Source of the DNA: Escherichia coli
Lineage (GTDB): Bacteria; Pseudomonadota; Gammaproteobacteria; Enterobacterales; Enterobacteriaceae
Assembly: GCF_003334255.1 (NCBI RefSeq)
Contig: NZ_QOWU01000003.1
DNA: 64,000 nucleotides
Strand: one strand, 5' to 3'
Both the position numbers and the translations under genes were made by a program. How positions within the stretch are numbered: the first letter of the stretch is position 1; each line of letters starts with the position of its first letter. Below are positions 56,427 through 64,000 of this stretch, one piece after another. A model generated the notes under the pieces. The model made no database searches. It saw only the letters and a list, made by a program, of their open reading frames with translations, and was not told the origin of the DNA.

Positions 56427-57100
56427 AATCTGATAGACCGCGCCTTGAAAAGAGGCCAAAGCCTGCCATTTTTAGCTCAATTCGGCGATGACCTGGATCA
56501 ATCGTCCCGGCCTGCTTTTATCAACTGCATAATCAATCAAAATTACCGAAATTTCATGCATAATCACATAAATCACTTTTGCTTATCTTGTGTCAGATTT
56601 TTTTATCTCCTGATGGATTTTAGGCAAAAACAGTAGCATGAAACGTCATTACCAATTAAGGCAGTATAAAATGCTGGTTTTGTCGTCAGTTCAAGGCAGG
56701 ATAAGGGTTAACACACCTTTATGACAGTCAGGAATTGACTGTTTCTCTAACGACTTCCCTTTTAGCCTTAAAGATAAAATCCATTTTAATTTCAGTCATT
56801 TAATAAAGAATTTTGCGCTAAAGCACATTTCTGTACCAATAAGCTTGCCATTTGACCTGTATCAGCTTTCCCGATAAGTTGGAAATCCGCTGGAAGCTTT
56901 CTGGATGAGCAGCCTGCTCATCATATTTATGCAGTAATTGAGATCCCCTCTTCACCGTATTAACCGATGCGAAAAGGACAACAAGGGGGCGAATGCGAGG
57001 CGCGCGTATGACACGCAAACCCCGTCGCCACGCTCTTTCTGTGCCCGTGCGCAGCGGTTCGGAAGTGGGGTTCCCGCAGAGCCTGGGGGAGGTTCACGAT

Positions 57101-60100
57101 ATGTTGTACGATAAATCCCTTGAGAGGGATAACTGTGGTTTCGGCCTGATCGCCCACATAGAAGGCGAACCTAGCCACAAGGTAGTGCGTACTGCAATAC
57201 ACGCACTGGCCCGCATGCAGCACCGTGGCGCGATTCTCGCCGATGGTAAAACCGGCGACGGTTGCGGCTTGCTGTTACAAAAACCGGATCGCTTTTTTCG
57301 CATCGTTGCGCAGGAGCGCGGCTGGCGTTTAGCAAAAAACTACGCTGTCGGGATGCTCTTCCTGAATAAAGATCCTGAACTCGCCGCTGCCGCACGCCGC
57401 ATCGTTGAAGAAGAACTGCAACGCGAAACCTTGTCGATTGTGGGCTGGCGTGATGTCCCCACTAACGAAGGCGTGCTGGGTGAAATCGCCCTCTCCTCTC
57501 TGCCACGCATTGAGCAAATTTTTGTGAACGCCCCGGCAGGCTGGCGTCCACGCGATATGGAGCGCCGTCTGTTTATCGCCCGCCGCCGCATTGAAAAGCG
57601 TCTCGAAGCCGACAAAGACTTCTACGTCTGTAGCCTGTCGAATCTGGTGAACATCTATAAAGGTCTGTGTATGCCGACGGATCTGCCGCGCTTTTATCTG
57701 GATCTTGCGGACCTGCGTCTGGAATCGGCCATTTGCCTGTTCCACCAGCGCTTCTCCACTAACACCGTACCGCGCTGGCCGCTGGCGCAACCGTTCCGCT
57801 ATCTGGCGCATAACGGTGAAATCAACACCATCACCGGTAACCGCCAATGGGCGCGTGCGCGTACTTATAAATTCCAGACACCGCTTATCCCTGACCTGCA
57901 CGACGCCGCACCGTTCGTCAACGAAACCGGCTCTGACTCCAGTTCGATGGATAACATGCTGGAACTGCTGCTGGCAGGCGGGATGGATATCATCCGCGCC
58001 ATGCGTCTATTAGTACCACCCGCCTGGCAGAACAACCCGGATATGGACCCGGAACTGCGTGCCTTCTTTGACTTTAACTCCATGCATATGGAGCCGTGGG
58101 ATGGCCCGGCGGGCATCGTGATGTCCGACGGTCGTTTTGCCGCCTGTAACCTCGACCGTAACGGTCTGCGTCCGGCGCGCTACGTCATCACCAAAGATAA
58201 GCTCATCACCTGCGCCTCTGAAGTCGGTATCTGGGATTACCAGCCTGACGAAGTGGTCGAAAAAGGCCGCGTCGGGCCAGGCGAACTGATGGTTATCGAC
58301 ACCCGCAGTGGGCGTATTCTGCACTCGGCAGAAACCGATGACGATCTGAAAAGCCGCCATCCATATAAAGAGTGGATGGAGAAAAACGTCCGCCGACTGG
58401 TACCGTTTGAAGATCTGCCCGATGAAGAAGTGGGTAGCCGCGAACTGGACGACGACACGCTTGCCAGCTACCAGAAACAGTTTAACTACAGCGCGGAAGA
58501 GCTGGACTCCGTAATTCGCGTACTGGGCGAAAACGGTCAGGAAGCGGTCGGTTCGATGGGCGATGATACCCCATTCGCCGTGCTCTCCAGTCAGCCGCGC
58601 ATTATTTACGACTACTTCCGCCAGCAGTTTGCCCAGGTGACTAACCCGCCAATCGACCCGCTGCGTGAAGCGCATGTTATGTCGCTCGCCACCAGTATCG
58701 GTCGTGAAATGAACGTCTTTTGCGAAGCAGAGGGCCAGGCGCACCGTTTAAGCTTTAAATCGCCGATTCTGCTCTACTCCGATTTCAAACAGCTCACGAC
58801 GATGAAAGAGGAGCACTACCGCGCAGATACGCTGGATATCACCTTTGACGTCACTAAAACCACGCTCGAAGCGACAGTCAAAGAGCTGTGCGACAAAGCC
58901 GAAAAAATGGTACGTAGCGGCACCGTGCTGCTGGTGCTCTCCGACCGGAATATCGCTAAAGATCGCCTGCCGGTTCCAGCCCCGATGGCGGTTGGCGCGA
59001 TCCAGACCCGTCTGGTCGATCAAAGCCTGCGTTGCGATGCCAACATCATCGTCGAAACCGCCAGCGCCCGCGATCCGCACCACTTCGCCGTGTTGCTGGG
59101 CTTCGGCGCGACGGCTATTTATCCATACCTTGCCTATGAAACGCTGGGCCGCCTGGTAGACACCCATGCGATTGCCAAAGATTATCGTACCGTGATGCTC
59201 AACTACCGTAACGGCATCAACAAAGGCTTGTACAAAATCATGTCCAAAATGGGCATCTCCACCATCGCCTCTTACCGCTGCTCGAAACTGTTTGAAGCGG
59301 TCGGTCTACACGATGATGTAGTGGGCCTGTGCTTCCAGGGGGCGGTCAGCCGCATTGGTGGAGCAAGCTTTGAAGACTTCCAGCAGGATCTGCTGAATCT
59401 GTCGAAACGTGCCTGGCTGGCGCGTAAGCCCATCAGCCAGGGCGGTCTGCTGAAATACGTCCACGGCGGCGAATACCACGCCTACAACCCGGACGTGGTG
59501 CGCACGCTGCAACAAGCGGTACAAAGCGGCGAGTACAGCGACTATCAGGAATACGCGAAGCTGGTTAATGAGCGTCCGGCAACCACGCTGCGCGATCTGC
59601 TGGCAATTACGCCGGGTGAAAACGCGGTCAACATTGCTGATGTTGAACCGGCAAGCGAACTGTTTAAACGCTTTGATACCGCCGCGATGTCTATCGGCGC
59701 GTTAAGCCCGGAAGCCCACGAGGCGCTGGCGGAAGCGATGAACAGCATCGGCGGTAATTCGAACTCCGGTGAAGGCGGCGAAGACCCGGCGCGCTACGGC
59801 ACCAACAAAGTGTCGCGCATCAAGCAGGTGGCTTCCGGTCGCTTTGGGGTTACTCCGGCGTATCTGGTCAATGCCGACGTCATTCAGATTAAAGTCGCCC
59901 AGGGCGCGAAGCCAGGCGAAGGCGGTCAGTTGCCGGGTGATAAAGTCACGCCTTACATCGCCAAACTGCGCTATTCGGTGCCCGGAGTGACGCTGATCTC
60001 CCCGCCGCCGCACCACGATATCTACTCTATCGAGGACTTAGCGCAGCTCATTTTCGACCTCAAGCAGGTTAACCCGAAAGCGATGATCTCCGTGAAGCTG

Positions 60101-61561
60101 GTTTCCGAACCGGGAGTAGGCACCATCGCGACTGGCGTGGCAAAAGCTTATGCGGACTTGATCACCATCGCAGGCTATGACGGCGGCACCGGCGCAAGTC
60201 CGCTTTCATCGGTGAAATACGCAGGCTGTCCGTGGGAGCTGGGGCTTGTTGAAACCCAGCAGGCGCTGGTTGCTAACGGCTTGCGTCACAAGATCCGTTT
60301 GCAGGTCGATGGCGGCCTGAAAACGGGTGTCGATATCATCAAGGCGGCGATTCTCGGCGCAGAAAGCTTCGGCTTCGGCACTGGCCCGATGGTGGCGCTC
60401 GGCTGTAAATATCTACGTATTTGCCATCTGAACAACTGCGCAACGGGTGTAGCAACTCAGGATGACAAACTGCGTAAGAACCACTATCACGGCCTGCCAT
60501 TCAAGGTGACGAATTACTTTGAGTTTATCGCCCGTGAAACCCGCGAGCTGATGGCACAGCTTGGCGTAACACGTCTGGTGGATCTGATTGGTCGCACCGA
60601 CCTGCTGAAAGAGCTGGACGGTTTCACCGCCAAACAGCAGAAGCTGGCGCTGTCGAAGCTGCTGGAGACTGCCGAACCGCATCCAGGTAAGGCACTCTAC
60701 TGCACCGAAAACAACCCGCCGTTTGATAACGGCCTGCTGAACGCGCAGTTGCTGCAACAGGCGAAACCGTTTGTCGATGAGCGCCAGAGCAAAACCTTCT
60801 GGTTCGATATTCGCAACACCGACCGTTCTGTCGGCGCGTCGCTTTCAGGCTATATCGCCCAGACGCACGGCGATCAGGGGCTGGCAGCCGATCCTATCAA
60901 AGCGTACTTCAACGGCACCGCAGGCCAGAGCTTCGGCGTGTGGAACGCGGGCGGCGTGGAACTGTACCTGACCGGTGATGCCAACGACTATGTCGGTAAA
61001 GGCATGGCGGGCGGCTTAATCGCCATTCGTCCTCCGGTTGGTTCCGCCTTCCGCAGCCATGAAGCAAGCATTATCGGCAACACCTGCCTGTATGGCGCGA
61101 CCGGTGGTCGTCTGTATGCCGCAGGCCGCGCGGGTGAACGTTTCGGCGTGCGTAACTCCGGTGCTATCACCGTGGTAGAAGGCATTGGCGACAACGGTTG
61201 TGAATATATGACGGGTGGTATCGTCTGCATTCTGGGTAAAACCGGCGTTAACTTCGGTGCGGGCATGACCGGCGGTTTCGCTTACGTTCTCGATGAAAGC
61301 GGCGATTTCCGCAAACGCGTTAACCCGGAACTGGTCGAGGTCTTAAGCGTTGACGCTCTGGCGATCCATGAAGAGCATCTGCGTGGTCTTATCACCGAGC
61401 ATGTGCAGCATACCGGCTCTCAGCGCGGTGAAGAGATTCTGGCGAACTGGTCAACCTTCGCCACTAAATTTGCGCTGGTTAAACCGAAGTCCAGTGATGT
61501 AAAAGCACTGCTGGGTCACCGTAGTCGTAGCGCAGCTGAGTTGCGCGTGCAGGCGCAGTAA
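57101..61561 (+). CDS. gltB: Glutamate synthase (NADPH) large subunit GltB, 1486 aa from [12 protein letters not shown]
   Basis: ORF track 56993..61561; Ntn amidotransferase nucleophile Cys in [12 protein letters not shown]; the ORF extends 36 codons upstream of the ATG used here. Confidence 0.92.
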
Positions 61562-62992
<1,431 letters not shown>

Positions 62993-63551
62993 GCGAGGTA
63001 ACAATGAATTCGCCAGACTGTGTCTGGCGAATCAAATTACTGACGAAGTGCGCGTTGTTTTCTGGCAAATGCGGCATGAGCGTTTGACCTTTCCTATAAT
63101 AGGGATAATTTTCAATAAATTGTGCTTTGTTCACCAAGTCTGATGAGTGAAGCACATCAAGCAATTTCTCATTTACAATCCGTCTCAATTACTTGTTAAC
63201 ACCTCTGACAATACCGATTCTGCAAGCTATTCAGTCTTTTCATTCCATGTAAATTGTCTCGATATTAATATACAAAATATGAATATAAAAAACCAATATA
63301 TTATCCTTAATTATCTATATATTTTCCTATTTTTCAGCGCAAACATTCATGTAATGAATAATTATCACCACAAACCACCTCACCAGCACCTTATTATTCA
63401 CATGATCGTAACTATAAAATTCATTAAATAAATACATCCCAGCAAGTTGGCTATTTCTGAACGAGTTATTTATTTACATTCACAAACAGATATATATACT
63501 GCTTCAGCTTTTTATTTTAAAAAATAAATTTGTTATTAAGGATATGTTCAT

Positions 63552-63923
63552 ATGTTTTTCAAAAAGAACCTCACAACAGCTGCTATTTGTGCAGCACTTT
63601 CTGTTGCAGCATTCAGTGCCATGGCAACAGATTCAACTGATACAGAATTAACTATCATCGGCGAGTATACCCCTGGTGCATGTACCCCAGTTGTTACGGG
63701 CGGCGGCATTGTTGACTATGGGAAACATCATAACAGTGCGCTGAATCCGACCGGTAAAAGTAATAAACTGGTTCAACTGGGCCGCAAAAACAGCACATTA
63801 AATATAACCTGCACAGCACCAACGCTAATTGCTGTAACCTCCAAGGATAACCGTCAGTCGACCATTGTAGCGTTAAACGACACATCCTATATTGAAAAAG
63901 CTTATGATACTCTCGTAGATATG
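63552..63923 (+). pseudogene. gltF: gltF (periplasmic protein GltF), N-terminal 123-124 codons, apparently truncated by IS1
   Basis: ORF track 63552..63950; signal peptide MFFKKNLTTAAICAALSVAAFSAMA; frame runs into the IS1 terminal repeat at about 63924 and stops at a TAG inside it; I recall intact GltF as roughly twice this length. Confidence 0.7.
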
Positions 63924-64000
63924 GGTGATGCTGCCAACTTACTGATTTAGTGTATGATGGTGTTTTTGAGGTGCTCCAGTGGCTTCTGTTTCTATCAGCT
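63924..64000 (+). mobile_element. IS1 insertion sequence, left terminal inverted repeat and 5-prime region (element continues past the window end)
   Basis: GGTGATGCTGCCAACTTACTGATTTAGTGTATGATGGTGTTTTTGAGGTGCTCCAGTGGCTTCTGTTTCTATCAGCT matches the IS1 left end as I recall it, including the start of insA. Confidence 0.85.
63979..64000 (+). CDS. insA: IS1 InsA, first 7 codons only (GTG start)
   Basis: GTG GCT TCT GTT TCT ATC AGC translates to (M)ASVSIS, the InsA N-terminus. Confidence 0.7.

Follow-up and report, generated by a model that had tools for sequence, protein, structure and literature searches.

A Probable Fimbrial Leader Behind gltBD

The main finding obtained in this work is that the AT-rich spacer between gltD and gltF is probably the regulatory leader lying 5' to an accessory fimbrial operon of the beta chaperone-usher class, gltF-yhcA-yhcD-yhcE-yhcF, which is lodged behind gltBD, and not a glt regulatory element. 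In the arrangement that we propose, the gltBD transcripts would end or gain stability at a GC hairpin behind gltD, and the next ~500 bp would be AT-rich and untranslated, a type of DNA coated by H-NS, keeping the operon silent in laboratory conditions. A sigma-70 promoter of its own, ~50 bp upstream of gltF, would then drive the operon, and two or three dyads further upstream (at about -81, -155, and -230) would be candidate sites for a dimeric regulator, possibly of the LysR type, able to counteract the silencing. The names "gltF" and "gltBDF operon" imply nitrogen metabolism, whereas the sequence and comparative evidence points to a pilus operon that is optional and brings its own AT-rich leader. 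Regulon inference would be misled if the spacer were counted among the glt control elements, for instance in the Lrp-target lists that contain gltF. The features discussed below are collected in Table 1.

Table 1. Coordinates of known and predicted features at the gltD-gltF junction, given as positions in the window (the whole 64-kb stretch of DNA that was analysed)
Feature	Position	Strand	Basis or remark
gltD, glutamate synthase small subunit	61574..62992	+	472-aa ORF, annotated gltD in K-12; last core gene ahead of the variable region
Accessory islet, boundary zone on the left	62994..63033		Homology breakpoints against other strains
GC-rich hairpin	63008..63032		Arms 63008-63018 / 63022-63032, 11 perfect pairs, 3-nt loop, without U-tract
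AT-rich untranslated DNA, probable leader/regulatory region of gltF-yhcADEF (beta-class chaperone-usher operon)	63033..63551	+	Composition; equivalent leaders before homologous operons
94-aa GTG ORF, compositional artefact	63147..63431	+	No family match, no conservation
Dyad-like site ATACA-N5-TGAAT	63270..63284		One mismatch to ATTCA-N5-TGAAT; centre at about -230 from the predicted start
Perfect dyad ATTCATGTAATGAAT, candidate operator A	63345..63359		ATTCA-N5-TGAAT, T-N11-A geometry; centre at about -155
Dyad ATTCATTAAATAAAT, candidate operator B	63419..63433		Single mismatch; distance to site A, 74 bp; centre at about -81
Sigma-70-like predicted promoter, TTTACA-16 nt-TATACT	63473..63500	+	10/12 consensus matches; -35 at 63473-63478, -10 at 63495-63500
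Shine-Dalgarno AAGGA	63538..63542	+	9 nt ahead of the gltF ATG; kept in 3/3 aligned Escherichia alleles
gltF codons 1-124	63552..63923	+	Sec signal peptide, then DUF1120 pilin-like domain; truncated in the window
IS1 left end (GGTGATGCTGCCAACTTACTGAT...) inserted in gltF	63924..64000	+	Artificial gltF ORF then stops at 63950

Extent and Composition of the Spacer

A first-pass annotation, made from the letters of the window, had described a strongly AT-rich spacer of about 560 bp between gltD and gltF, and this spacer is real. It occupies positions 62993-63551 (559 bp, GC 0.32), between the gltD stop codon (TAA at 62992) and the gltF start at 63552, and it is 100% identical to the gltD-gltF intergenic region of E. 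coli K-12. In 63100-63551 the GC content is 0.285, against 0.518 over the whole 64-kb window, and the sharp contrast in composition with the flanking gltBD genes that had been remarked upon is borne out by the GC figures. Sliding GC values revealed that the spacer is not uniform, since the ~100 nt past the hairpin reach ~0.39-0.50 and the AT-rich core begins only at ~63100-63150, with a GC content of 25-29% (~0.28 in 63150-63530). Both the lowest-GC 559-bp stretch (0.304) and the lowest-GC 300-bp stretch (0.247) of the 64 kb fall in the spacer, and 300-bp windows with a GC content of 0.30 or less make up 0.3% of the 64 kb. Runs of A/T of at least 8 nt occur at 25 per kb in the spacer vs. 2.25 per kb windowwide, and the frequency of the TpA step is 0.097 vs. 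0.042, respectively. The two strings that had been quoted as repeated tracts are indeed present (63262-63306 and 63510-63541), although they do not belong to a repeat family: one weak 15-bp tandem of 2.1 copies was found at 63262-63292, and otherwise a few short pairs at chance level. A scan of 62500-64000 with the Rfam 15 covariance models (E ≤ 1) returned zero matches.

gltF and the Accessory Chaperone-Usher Operon

gltF is the pilin-like first gene of the accessory beta-class operon gltF-yhcADEF and not a glutamate-synthase gene. The DUF1120 domain of GltF was matched with an E value of 1.8e-45, and the best PDB matches of its AlphaFold model (pLDDT 79) were the FimA, FimG, FimF, PapK, and CS20 pilins; the matches to FimA, FimG, FimF, and PapK had probabilities of 0.9-1.0 with TM-scores that are modest (0.42-0.56). 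A search of PDB sequences with GltF gave no meaningful match, and only the fold comparison indicated pilins. In K-12, the genes 3' of the spacer are, in order, gltF (DUF1120), yhcA (PapD-like chaperone), yhcD (usher), yhcE, and yhcF (DUF1120), and genes for a chaperone and an usher follow gltF in K-12-type genomes as well as in all homologous loci. These two genes are not visible in the window because it stops inside the IS1 that interrupts gltF. The operon has a GC content of 0.42-0.46 vs. 0.56-0.57 for gltBD. Previous studies describe gltF-yhcADEF as the beta-class "yhc" chaperone-usher locus, present in phylogroup A only and cryptic in K-12 (PMC5216030; PMC3032704; PMC8174762). The spacer is a textbook case of low-GC accessory DNA, an ordinary type that is for the most part known already. 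The first-pass annotation had missed the identity of the pilin operon, the left edge of the islet, and the IS1 truncation. Some strains of phylogroup A and ETEC retain the uncharacterised beta-class fimbriae in intact form.

The distribution of the spacer agrees with that of an optional element. It was found in 1,237-1,293 of the 5,426 complete E. coli genomes (~23%, sensitive blastn included), vs. 5,416 for the 3' end of gltD; judged from these genome sequences, the spacer and the operon are an accessory islet that is absent from ~77% of E. coli. Three alternative states of the locus were recognised, namely the gltF islet, gltD followed by yhcG (O157, B1), and gltD followed by the hairpin and nanQ (B2). 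Homology with O157/B1-type genomes stops at 62994, and with B2-type genomes at 63032.

An AT-rich leader of 342-559 bp (GC 0.26-0.32) precedes every homologous operon, whichever gene lies upstream. Four more divergent alleles adjacent to gltD (L007/L018, L010, L017, and L019), whose GltF proteins are 54-78% identical, have leaders of 342-508 bp with a GC content of ~0.30. L007 and L010 were absent from the complete E. coli genomes searched and therefore presumably come from other Escherichia lineages. Convergence with gltD is seen in Enterobacter mori, in Kluyvera, and in an unplaced metagenomic allele (L014), where the operon lies behind the sspB terminator, with leaders of 507-548 bp (GC 0.26-0.30). 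This convergent arrangement makes co-transcription with gltD impossible in Enterobacter and Kluyvera, and the operon must have its own promoter there. The earlier proposal that the spacer controls gltF separately from gltBD is very probably correct.

Transcription Across the gltD-gltF Junction

The GC inverted repeat reported after the gltD stop does exist, although its start had been set ~10 nt too far to the left. The RNA hairpin that it would form has a dG of -22.6 kcal/mol (z -5.5), and it is probably the end of the gltBD transcript or a 3' stabiliser. Some GC hairpin is found at the equivalent place in every gltD-adjacent allele; in B2 strains it lies between the convergent gltD and nanQ genes, where it is retained in Nissle, and a paralogous copy with compensatory changes in the stem is located between yhcG and nanQ. 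A canonical intrinsic terminator was not found between gltD and gltF, and, as the gltD hairpin has no U-tract, some read-through from gltBD is possible.

It is conceivable, if somewhat doubtful, that the spacer is mainly a zone of Rho-dependent termination and insulation, a role that could coexist with that of a leader. Transcripts running past the gltD hairpin would continue into a long untranslated RNA, C-rich and G-poor, that would load Rho, and the fimbrial operon would thereby be shielded from the strongly expressed gltBD genes. The composition of the + strand is consistent with such a zone: in 63150-63530, C amounts to 20.2% and G to 7.9% (C/G 2.57), the 100 nt with the fewest G in the window are located at 63282-63381, and the spacer is devoid of a conserved ORF. 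The excess of C over G is shared by all five gltD-adjacent alleles (C/G 1.55-2.16), and it is not displayed by the sspB-adjacent alleles, which lie behind a strong intrinsic terminator. Nevertheless, the sense strand of the inverted Enterobacter/Kluyvera operons is G-rich or balanced (C/G 0.47-0.97), the excess of G being clear for two alleles out of three. The skew thus follows the chromosome strand and not the direction of the operon, so that it fits a replication-linked mutational bias equally well, which weakens the case for a selected Rho loading site.

A second alternative, which we regard as unlikely, is that the spacer is the intercistronic region of a gltB-gltD-gltF operon and that gltF, lacking its own promoter, owes most of its expression to read-through from the gltB promoter, which Lrp and IHF control. 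The co-orientation of gltF with gltD, the lack of a U-tract at the gltD hairpin, and the lack of a canonical intrinsic terminator agree with this alternative, as do the RegulonDB-derived lists that put gltF in gltBDF under Lrp and one paper that calls gltF part of gltBDF. However, gltF is absent from ~77% of the E. coli genomes carrying gltBD, its true partners are a chaperone and an usher, and the 559 nt that read-through would need to traverse are untranslated and G-poor. In addition, the AT-rich leader accompanies the operon in its convergent position in Enterobacter and Kluyvera, a second allele also has a -35/-10 pair, and a published ChIP-exo analysis treats gltF as a gene with an RNAP-occupied promoter of its own (PMC6237786).

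Predicted Promoter and Dyads in the Spacer

A leader with its own start signals is the reading that we favour, and the predicted sigma-70 promoter of Table 1 would initiate transcription at ~63507, leaving a 5'UTR of ~45 nt. A promoter-like site recurs in one of the four divergent Escherichia alleles, L007, where a similar architecture (TTTACA-16-TACACT) lies within a conserved block. Promoter-like sites in the region show no excess, with 3 observed vs. 4.3 expected from shuffles. The text of the ChIP-exo study implies that one of the regulators YeiE, YieP, YiaJ, or YafC binds at an RNAP-occupied gltF promoter; in the same work, gltF is a named exception in the analysis of transcription factor versus RNAP positions, and expression is reported to be changed in the deletion strains (PMC6237786).

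Upstream of this promoter, the leader contains copies of the dyad ATTCA-N5-TGAAT. The motif was spotted first and tested afterwards, and in an unbiased enumeration of dyads across eight distinct leaders only ATTCA-N5-TGAAT and the gltD hairpin were common to at least three; a G/C-containing dyad shared that widely appeared in 0 of 500 shuffles. Sites with at most one mismatch are confined to the leader in each 12-18 kb locus, and the dyad is missing, at the same tolerance, from four of the eight distinct leaders. For site A, both L007 and L010 have a positional counterpart with one mismatch, and the Enterobacter allele L011 has a perfect copy; the site adjoins the sole local peak of predicted curvature (63331). 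Counterparts of site B are found at a similar distance from the ATG in L007 (one mismatch) and in L010 (perfect). A literature search for ATTCA-N5-TGAAT found nothing. The sites resemble those of LysR-type regulators in that TTCA-N5-TGAA within the dyad has the T-N11-A geometry, the copies in the spacer are ~74 bp apart and upstream of the -35 element, and YeiE and YafC, which are among the four regulators reported near gltF, are LysR-type; the sites are unlike them in that half of the distinct leaders have no such dyad. We put forward, as a speculative proposal, that the beta-class (Yhc-type) leaders share an undescribed operator of two or three dyads, ~63-75 bp apart and upstream of the promoter, which may be bound by a chromosomal dimeric regulator, possibly of the LysR type (YeiE or YafC), that would switch the silent pilus operon on. 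The dyads offer a concrete starting point in the search for the signal that activates beta-class fimbriae.

Many fimbrial operons are phase variable, and an imperfect 24-nt inverted repeat (63302-63325 / 63521-63544, 79% complementary) surrounds 195 bp containing the predicted promoter. That the spacer acts as a phase-variation switch, whether by inversion of a promoter segment as in fim or by Dam/Lrp-dependent methylation as in pap, is nevertheless very improbable: a synthetic inverted junction searched against 5,426 genomes was present in 0 of 1,150, and no recombinase gene was found in the islet. A pap-like switch is rejected on account of the single GATC in the spacer, where two are needed, and the Lrp consensus matches are at chance level. 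Least probable of all is that the spacer is a decayed gene or codes for the 94-aa ORF, an uninterrupted frame of 94 codons that had rightly been suspected of being a compositional artefact, given that its GTG start has no Shine-Dalgarno sequence, its amino acid composition is the one that AT-rich codons produce, Pfam and NCBIfam yielded no match, it is unannotated in all ~1,150 RefSeq genomes among the matches listed, and divergent alleles contain no equivalent ORF. A 72-aa antisense ORF had no NCBIfam match either.

Curvature, H-NS, and Related Systems

The first-pass annotation had viewed the spacer as curved DNA bound by nucleoid proteins of the H-NS/Lrp/IHF type, and neither special curvature nor binding sites for these proteins could be confirmed. 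Curvature was predicted by a wedge model with the parameters of Bolshoy et al. (1991); the spacer lies at the 91st percentile of the window, yet 59% of dinucleotide shuffles reach its mean, and autocorrelation detected no 10-11 bp phasing of AA/TT steps in the spacer. Matches to IHF, Lrp, Fis, and H-NS consensus sites were at the chance level for the composition, as estimated from dinucleotide shuffles, and none of nine consensus tests of the spacer, among them those for IHF, Lrp, Fis, CRP, and two H-NS motifs, clearly exceeded chance. The H-NS high-affinity motifs TCGATAAATT and TCGATATATT likewise matched at chance level. The nearest approach to a signal was IHF at one mismatch, with 6 sites observed vs. 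2.15 expected (nominal P 0.035, uncorrected for the nine tests), and no exact IHF consensus match was present in the spacer.

The control region upstream of gltB is governed by Lrp, IHF, Crp, and ArgR (PMC1784095). That region (~56427-57100) neighbours the spacer on the chromosome, shares its strand, and seems to be the one that the first-pass annotation had in mind for control by nucleoid proteins; its GC content is 0.44 and its predicted curvature is the second highest in the window. In contrast, the spacer is far more AT-rich, is not specially curved, has no significant Lrp or IHF consensus, and belongs to a separate, accessory transcription unit.

The spacer does show traits of H-NS-type DNA, in that its AT content is extreme across several hundred bp, TpA steps are frequent, and it is tied to accessory genes. 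H-NS tracts, with a mean length of 1.7 kb, show enrichment at fimbrial operons and in horizontally acquired DNA (PMC3064808), and a site in yhcA, 1.4 kb downstream, was flagged as H-NS-bound, the expression of yhcA being very low (PMC10294691). Considering its composition together with this literature, silencing of the spacer by H-NS is likely. The closest parallels are the cryptic chaperone-usher operons of K-12 (sfm, ycb/elf, yra, ybg, yad, yeh, and others), whose AT-rich upstream regions are silenced by H-NS according to what PMC3559732 and PMC5216030 relate of Korea et al. (2010). As in those operons, a long, AT-rich, non-coding leader stands directly before the major-subunit gene, and the yhc operon is accessory, sporadic, and very poorly expressed in K-12. 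It differs from them in being the sole beta-class chaperone-usher operon of E. coli, in a spacer that falls outside the published "promoter islands" by sfmA, elfA, yraH, and ybgD, and in the gltF name and operon annotation, which are still tied to glutamate synthase.

Insertion Sequences at the Locus

The spacer region is an IS hotspot. Strain CFS3246 carries an IS1 that splits the predicted -35 from the -10 (target duplication at 63481-63489), and in different strains IS1 is also located at 63034 and 63158, as well as inside gltF; IS5 was found in the gltF-yhcA spacer and in yhcE. In the bgl operon, the H-NS-silenced promoter is activated by insertion of IS1 or IS5 (PMC9678765). The AT-rich regulatory region of gltF resembles bgl in attracting IS elements, and differs from it in that most insertions here delete or truncate the gltF operon. 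In the genome studied here, IS1 interrupts gltF at codon 124, and the operon is consequently dead or subject to polarity.

Identity and distribution of the gltD-gltF spacer

The DNA between gltD and gltF belongs, as a 5' leader of low GC content, to a cryptic chaperone-usher operon of sporadic occurrence, and its tie to glutamate synthase is purely positional. As gltD ends with a TAA codon at 62990-62992 and gltF starts at 63552, the spacer is 559 bp long; it is 100% identical to the same region of E. coli K-12. There it is followed by gltF (254 aa; Pfam DUF1120, E 1.8e-45), yhcA (PapD-like chaperone), yhcD (usher), yhcE (interrupted by IS5), yhcF (a second DUF1120 protein), yhcG and then the nan operon. 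Despite its name, gltF is the pilin-like first gene of a fimbrial operon, as indicated by its DUF1120 domain, its chaperone and usher neighbours, the modelled fold of its product and the listing of the operon in the literature. The AlphaFold model of GltF (16 homologues as input; pLDDT 79) had its best PDB matches among chaperone-usher pilins, namely FimA of E. coli and Salmonella, FimG, FimF, the CS20 pilin and PapK, with probabilities of 0.9-1.0 and modest TM-scores. Previous studies count gltF-yhcADEF among the twelve chaperone-usher operons of MG1655 and describe yhc as the sole beta-class locus of E. coli, found in phylogroup A only and considered cryptic in K-12 (PMC8174762, PMC3032704, PMC5216030, PMC3559732).

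The spacer is part of an accessory islet. Of 5,426 complete E. coli genomes, 5,416 had the final 400 bp of gltD and only 1,237-1,293, sensitive blastn included, had the spacer, always at 95-100% identity. Homology with O157 and B1-type genomes, which are arranged as gltD, 183 bp and yhcG, ends at 62994, 2 bases past the gltD stop, and homology with B2 genomes such as Nissle ends at 63032, directly 3' of a hairpin. The GC content of the islet operon is 0.42-0.46, compared to 0.56-0.57 for gltBD. Relatives of GltF are few (17 clusters among 5.8 billion proteins). Four more alleles sit behind gltD and point the same way; their GltF is 54-78% identical, and the C-terminus of GltD does not differ from the E. 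coli one. Two of these divergent alleles, L007 and L010, were looked for in complete E. coli genomes and had no match there. In three others (Enterobacter mori, Kluyvera and an unplaced metagenomic set) the operon occupies the space between sspB and gltD and is convergent to gltD, with its leader 3' of the canonical sspB terminator, so that co-transcription with gltBD is impossible. A leader of 342-559 bp with a GC content of 0.26-0.32 precedes the first pilin gene in all eight distinct versions; the AT-rich DNA travels with the fimbrial operon rather than with glt. Since the inverted operon recurs there in Enterobacter mori, Kluyvera and related metagenomic contigs (L011, L012, L013, L014-L016), where the nan genes are absent, the gltD-sspB interval is an old, recurrent site for a beta-class chaperone-usher operon. 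The Kluyvera operon has three tandem DUF1120 pilin genes.

Composition, curvature and nucleoid proteins

The AT-richness noticed in the first-pass annotation was confirmed: GC content is 0.32 in the spacer (0.285 for 63100-63551) versus 0.518 in the window, and no 559-bp or 300-bp stretch in the 64 kb has a lower GC content than those within it (0.304 and 0.247), a GC content of 0.30 or less occurring in just 0.3% of the 300-bp windows. Runs of at least 8 A/T are 11 times denser than in the window (25 versus 2.25 per kb) and TpA steps 2.3 times commoner. Both strings quoted in that annotation were found in the spacer; its "repeated" tracts do not form a repeat family. The 94-aa ORF was rightly suspected to be an artefact, as it has no Shine-Dalgarno sequence, no match in Pfam or NCBIfam, no annotation anywhere in RefSeq and no counterpart among the other alleles. 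An Rfam scan of the region gave no match. The feature is real and statistically extreme for the window, yet ordinary in kind.

The proposal that this is curved, Lrp/IHF-type DNA was not supported. In a Bolshoy-type wedge model, the mean predicted curvature (7.2 degrees per helical turn; 18.7 at one local peak, 63331) lies at the 91st percentile of 559-bp windows, but 59% of dinucleotide shuffles of the spacer equal or exceed this mean and 31% reach the maximum, and no 10-11-bp periodicity of AA/TT steps was found. For the IHF, Lrp, Fis and CRP consensus and two published H-NS nucleation motifs, the spacer had no clear excess of matches over its shuffles; IHF at one mismatch came nearest (6 observed versus 2.15 expected; nominal P 0.035, uncorrected), and the exact IHF consensus did not occur. 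The description fits instead the yhcC-gltB intergenic region (56427-57100), the known Lrp/IHF-controlled gltB promoter, which ranks second in predicted curvature (around 56440) and third in low GC in the window. The mechanically called gltB ORF (56993-61561; 1,522 aa from the ATG at 56993) exceeds RefSeq gltB (1,486 aa; start equivalent to 57101) by 36 codons.

Coating of the spacer by H-NS is likely, given its extreme AT and TpA content and previous reports. A PhoB ChIP site in yhcA, about 1.4 kb downstream, was flagged within an H-NS-bound region, and yhcA expression was 38 normalised units, against values in the thousands for housekeeping genes (PMC10294691). The mean length of H-NS tracts is 1.7 kb; they are overrepresented in horizontally acquired DNA, as is fimbrial biogenesis among H-NS-bound operons (PMC3064808). 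Repression by H-NS has been reported for the cryptic chaperone-usher operons of commensal E. coli (PMC3559732).

Signals within the leader

Features of the spacer and of the operon start (window coordinates)
Feature	Position	Details
GC hairpin	63008-63018 / 63022-63032	11 perfect pairs; RNA dG -22.6 kcal/mol, z -5.5
One-mismatch dyad	63270-63284	75 bp upstream of perfect dyad
Perfect dyad ATTCATGTAATGAAT	63345-63359	in second conserved block
One-mismatch dyad	63419-63433	74 bp downstream of perfect dyad
Predicted promoter (+ strand)	63473-63478 / 63495-63500	-35 TTTACA, 16 nt, -10 TATACT; consensus scan, 10/12 positions
Near-palindrome CAGATATATATACTG	63487-63501	overlaps predicted -10
Shine-Dalgarno AAGGA	9 nt before gltF ATG	conserved in 3/3 aligned alleles
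IS1 left end, this copy	63924-64000	past gltF codon 124
IS1, other genomes	63034; 63158	each with deletion reaching yhcG
IS1, strain CFS3246	63481-63489 (target duplication)	splits predicted -35 from -10
IS1, at least 8 genomes		deeper in gltF or near yhcA

The leader most likely carries the operon's own promoter, and the earlier idea that gltF is controlled apart from gltBD is very probably right. The consensus scan gave one promoter-like site on the + strand; overall, such sites are no more numerous in the region than in shuffles. This site carries weight because it falls within a block, one of only a few, that can be aligned with the divergent allele L007 (TTTATTTACAATCATAAACA..., 16 nt, TACACT). 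The near-palindrome at the -10 matches the Lrp consensus with 2 mismatches, which shuffles show to be non-significant (P about 0.26).

The inverted repeat reported after gltD is also real, although it begins about 10 nt to the right of the position first assigned. No shuffled sequence folds equally well, and no U-run was found 3' of the hairpin. Some GC hairpin directly follows the gltD stop in all five gltD-adjacent versions, with unrelated sequences in two of them. K-12 and O157 have a paralogous second hairpin in the yhcG-nanQ interval, its stem differing by compensatory changes. The two 28-bp hairpins, GAATTCGCCAGAC...GTCTGGCGAATC and GAATTCTGCAGAC...GTCTGCAGAATC (window 63008-63032 and, at yhcG/nanQ, 17354-17381 of the homologous locus L001), flank the islet together with yhcG. 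In B2 strains there is one copy only, located between gltD and nanQ, which are convergent there; this suggests insertion or deletion at a common bidirectional terminator.

One new lead is the recurring dyad ATTCA-N5-TGAAT, whose copies are candidate regulator sites. In L007 two one-mismatch copies are separated by 73 bp; in another divergent allele, L010, a perfect copy and a one-mismatch copy are separated by 63 bp. Their distances from the ATG are similar to those in the spacer. The Enterobacter leader (L011) has one perfect copy. Dyads with at most one mismatch occur nowhere else in each 12-18 kb locus. As the motif had been noticed before testing, we enumerated all 5-nt dyads with 3-7-nt spacers in eight distinct leaders; solely the gltD hairpin and ATTCA-N5-TGAAT were common to at least three, the latter being absent from four and two of its carriers, K-12 and L010, being related by descent. 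When all leaders were dinucleotide-shuffled 500 times, about 4% of trials gave a dyad common to at least three, and none (0/500) gave one with a G/C-containing half-site. The motif has the T-N11-A geometry typical of LysR-type regulators. A ChIP-exo study that related regulator positions to RNAP-occupied promoters places gltF among the targets of YeiE, YieP, YiaJ or YafC, two of which are LysR-type; its text names no single regulator for gltF (PMC6237786).

The spacer may have a secondary role, compatible with the main reading, in Rho-dependent insulation. The + strand of the core has 20% C and 8% G, and any read-through RNA would thus be well suited to Rho. However, in the operon sense C exceeds G in 5/5 gltD-adjacent alleles and G equals or exceeds C in 3/3 inverted ones, so that the skew tracks the chromosome strand independently of operon direction, which argues for a mutational origin. 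The leaders (63053-63551, L007, L010, L011, L013, L014, L017 and L019) show a roughly two-fold C/G asymmetry, the gltD-sense strand being C-rich in seven of eight and about balanced in L011. A fim-like phase switch, brought to mind by an imperfect inverted repeat flanking the promoter, was rejected, as 0 of 1,150 genomes had an inverted junction and the region has no recombinase gene and a single GATC site.

Insertion sequences

The gltF of this window matches that of K-12 without a difference over 372 nt (124 codons), after which the left end of IS1 begins at 63924; the 132-aa "gltF" ORF ending at 63950 is therefore a gltF-IS1 fusion artefact. The exact junction was not found in complete E. 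coli genomes, many of which have other IS events at this locus. An IS5 in the gltF-yhcA spacer has been reported in evolved K-12 (PMC8403718). A full-length spacer is missing from about 11% of the genomes that have any of it. Independent IS1 insertions and IS1-bounded deletions at several sites in different strains (loci L002, L003, L020 and L021) make the spacer and the 5' portion of the operon an IS hotspot.
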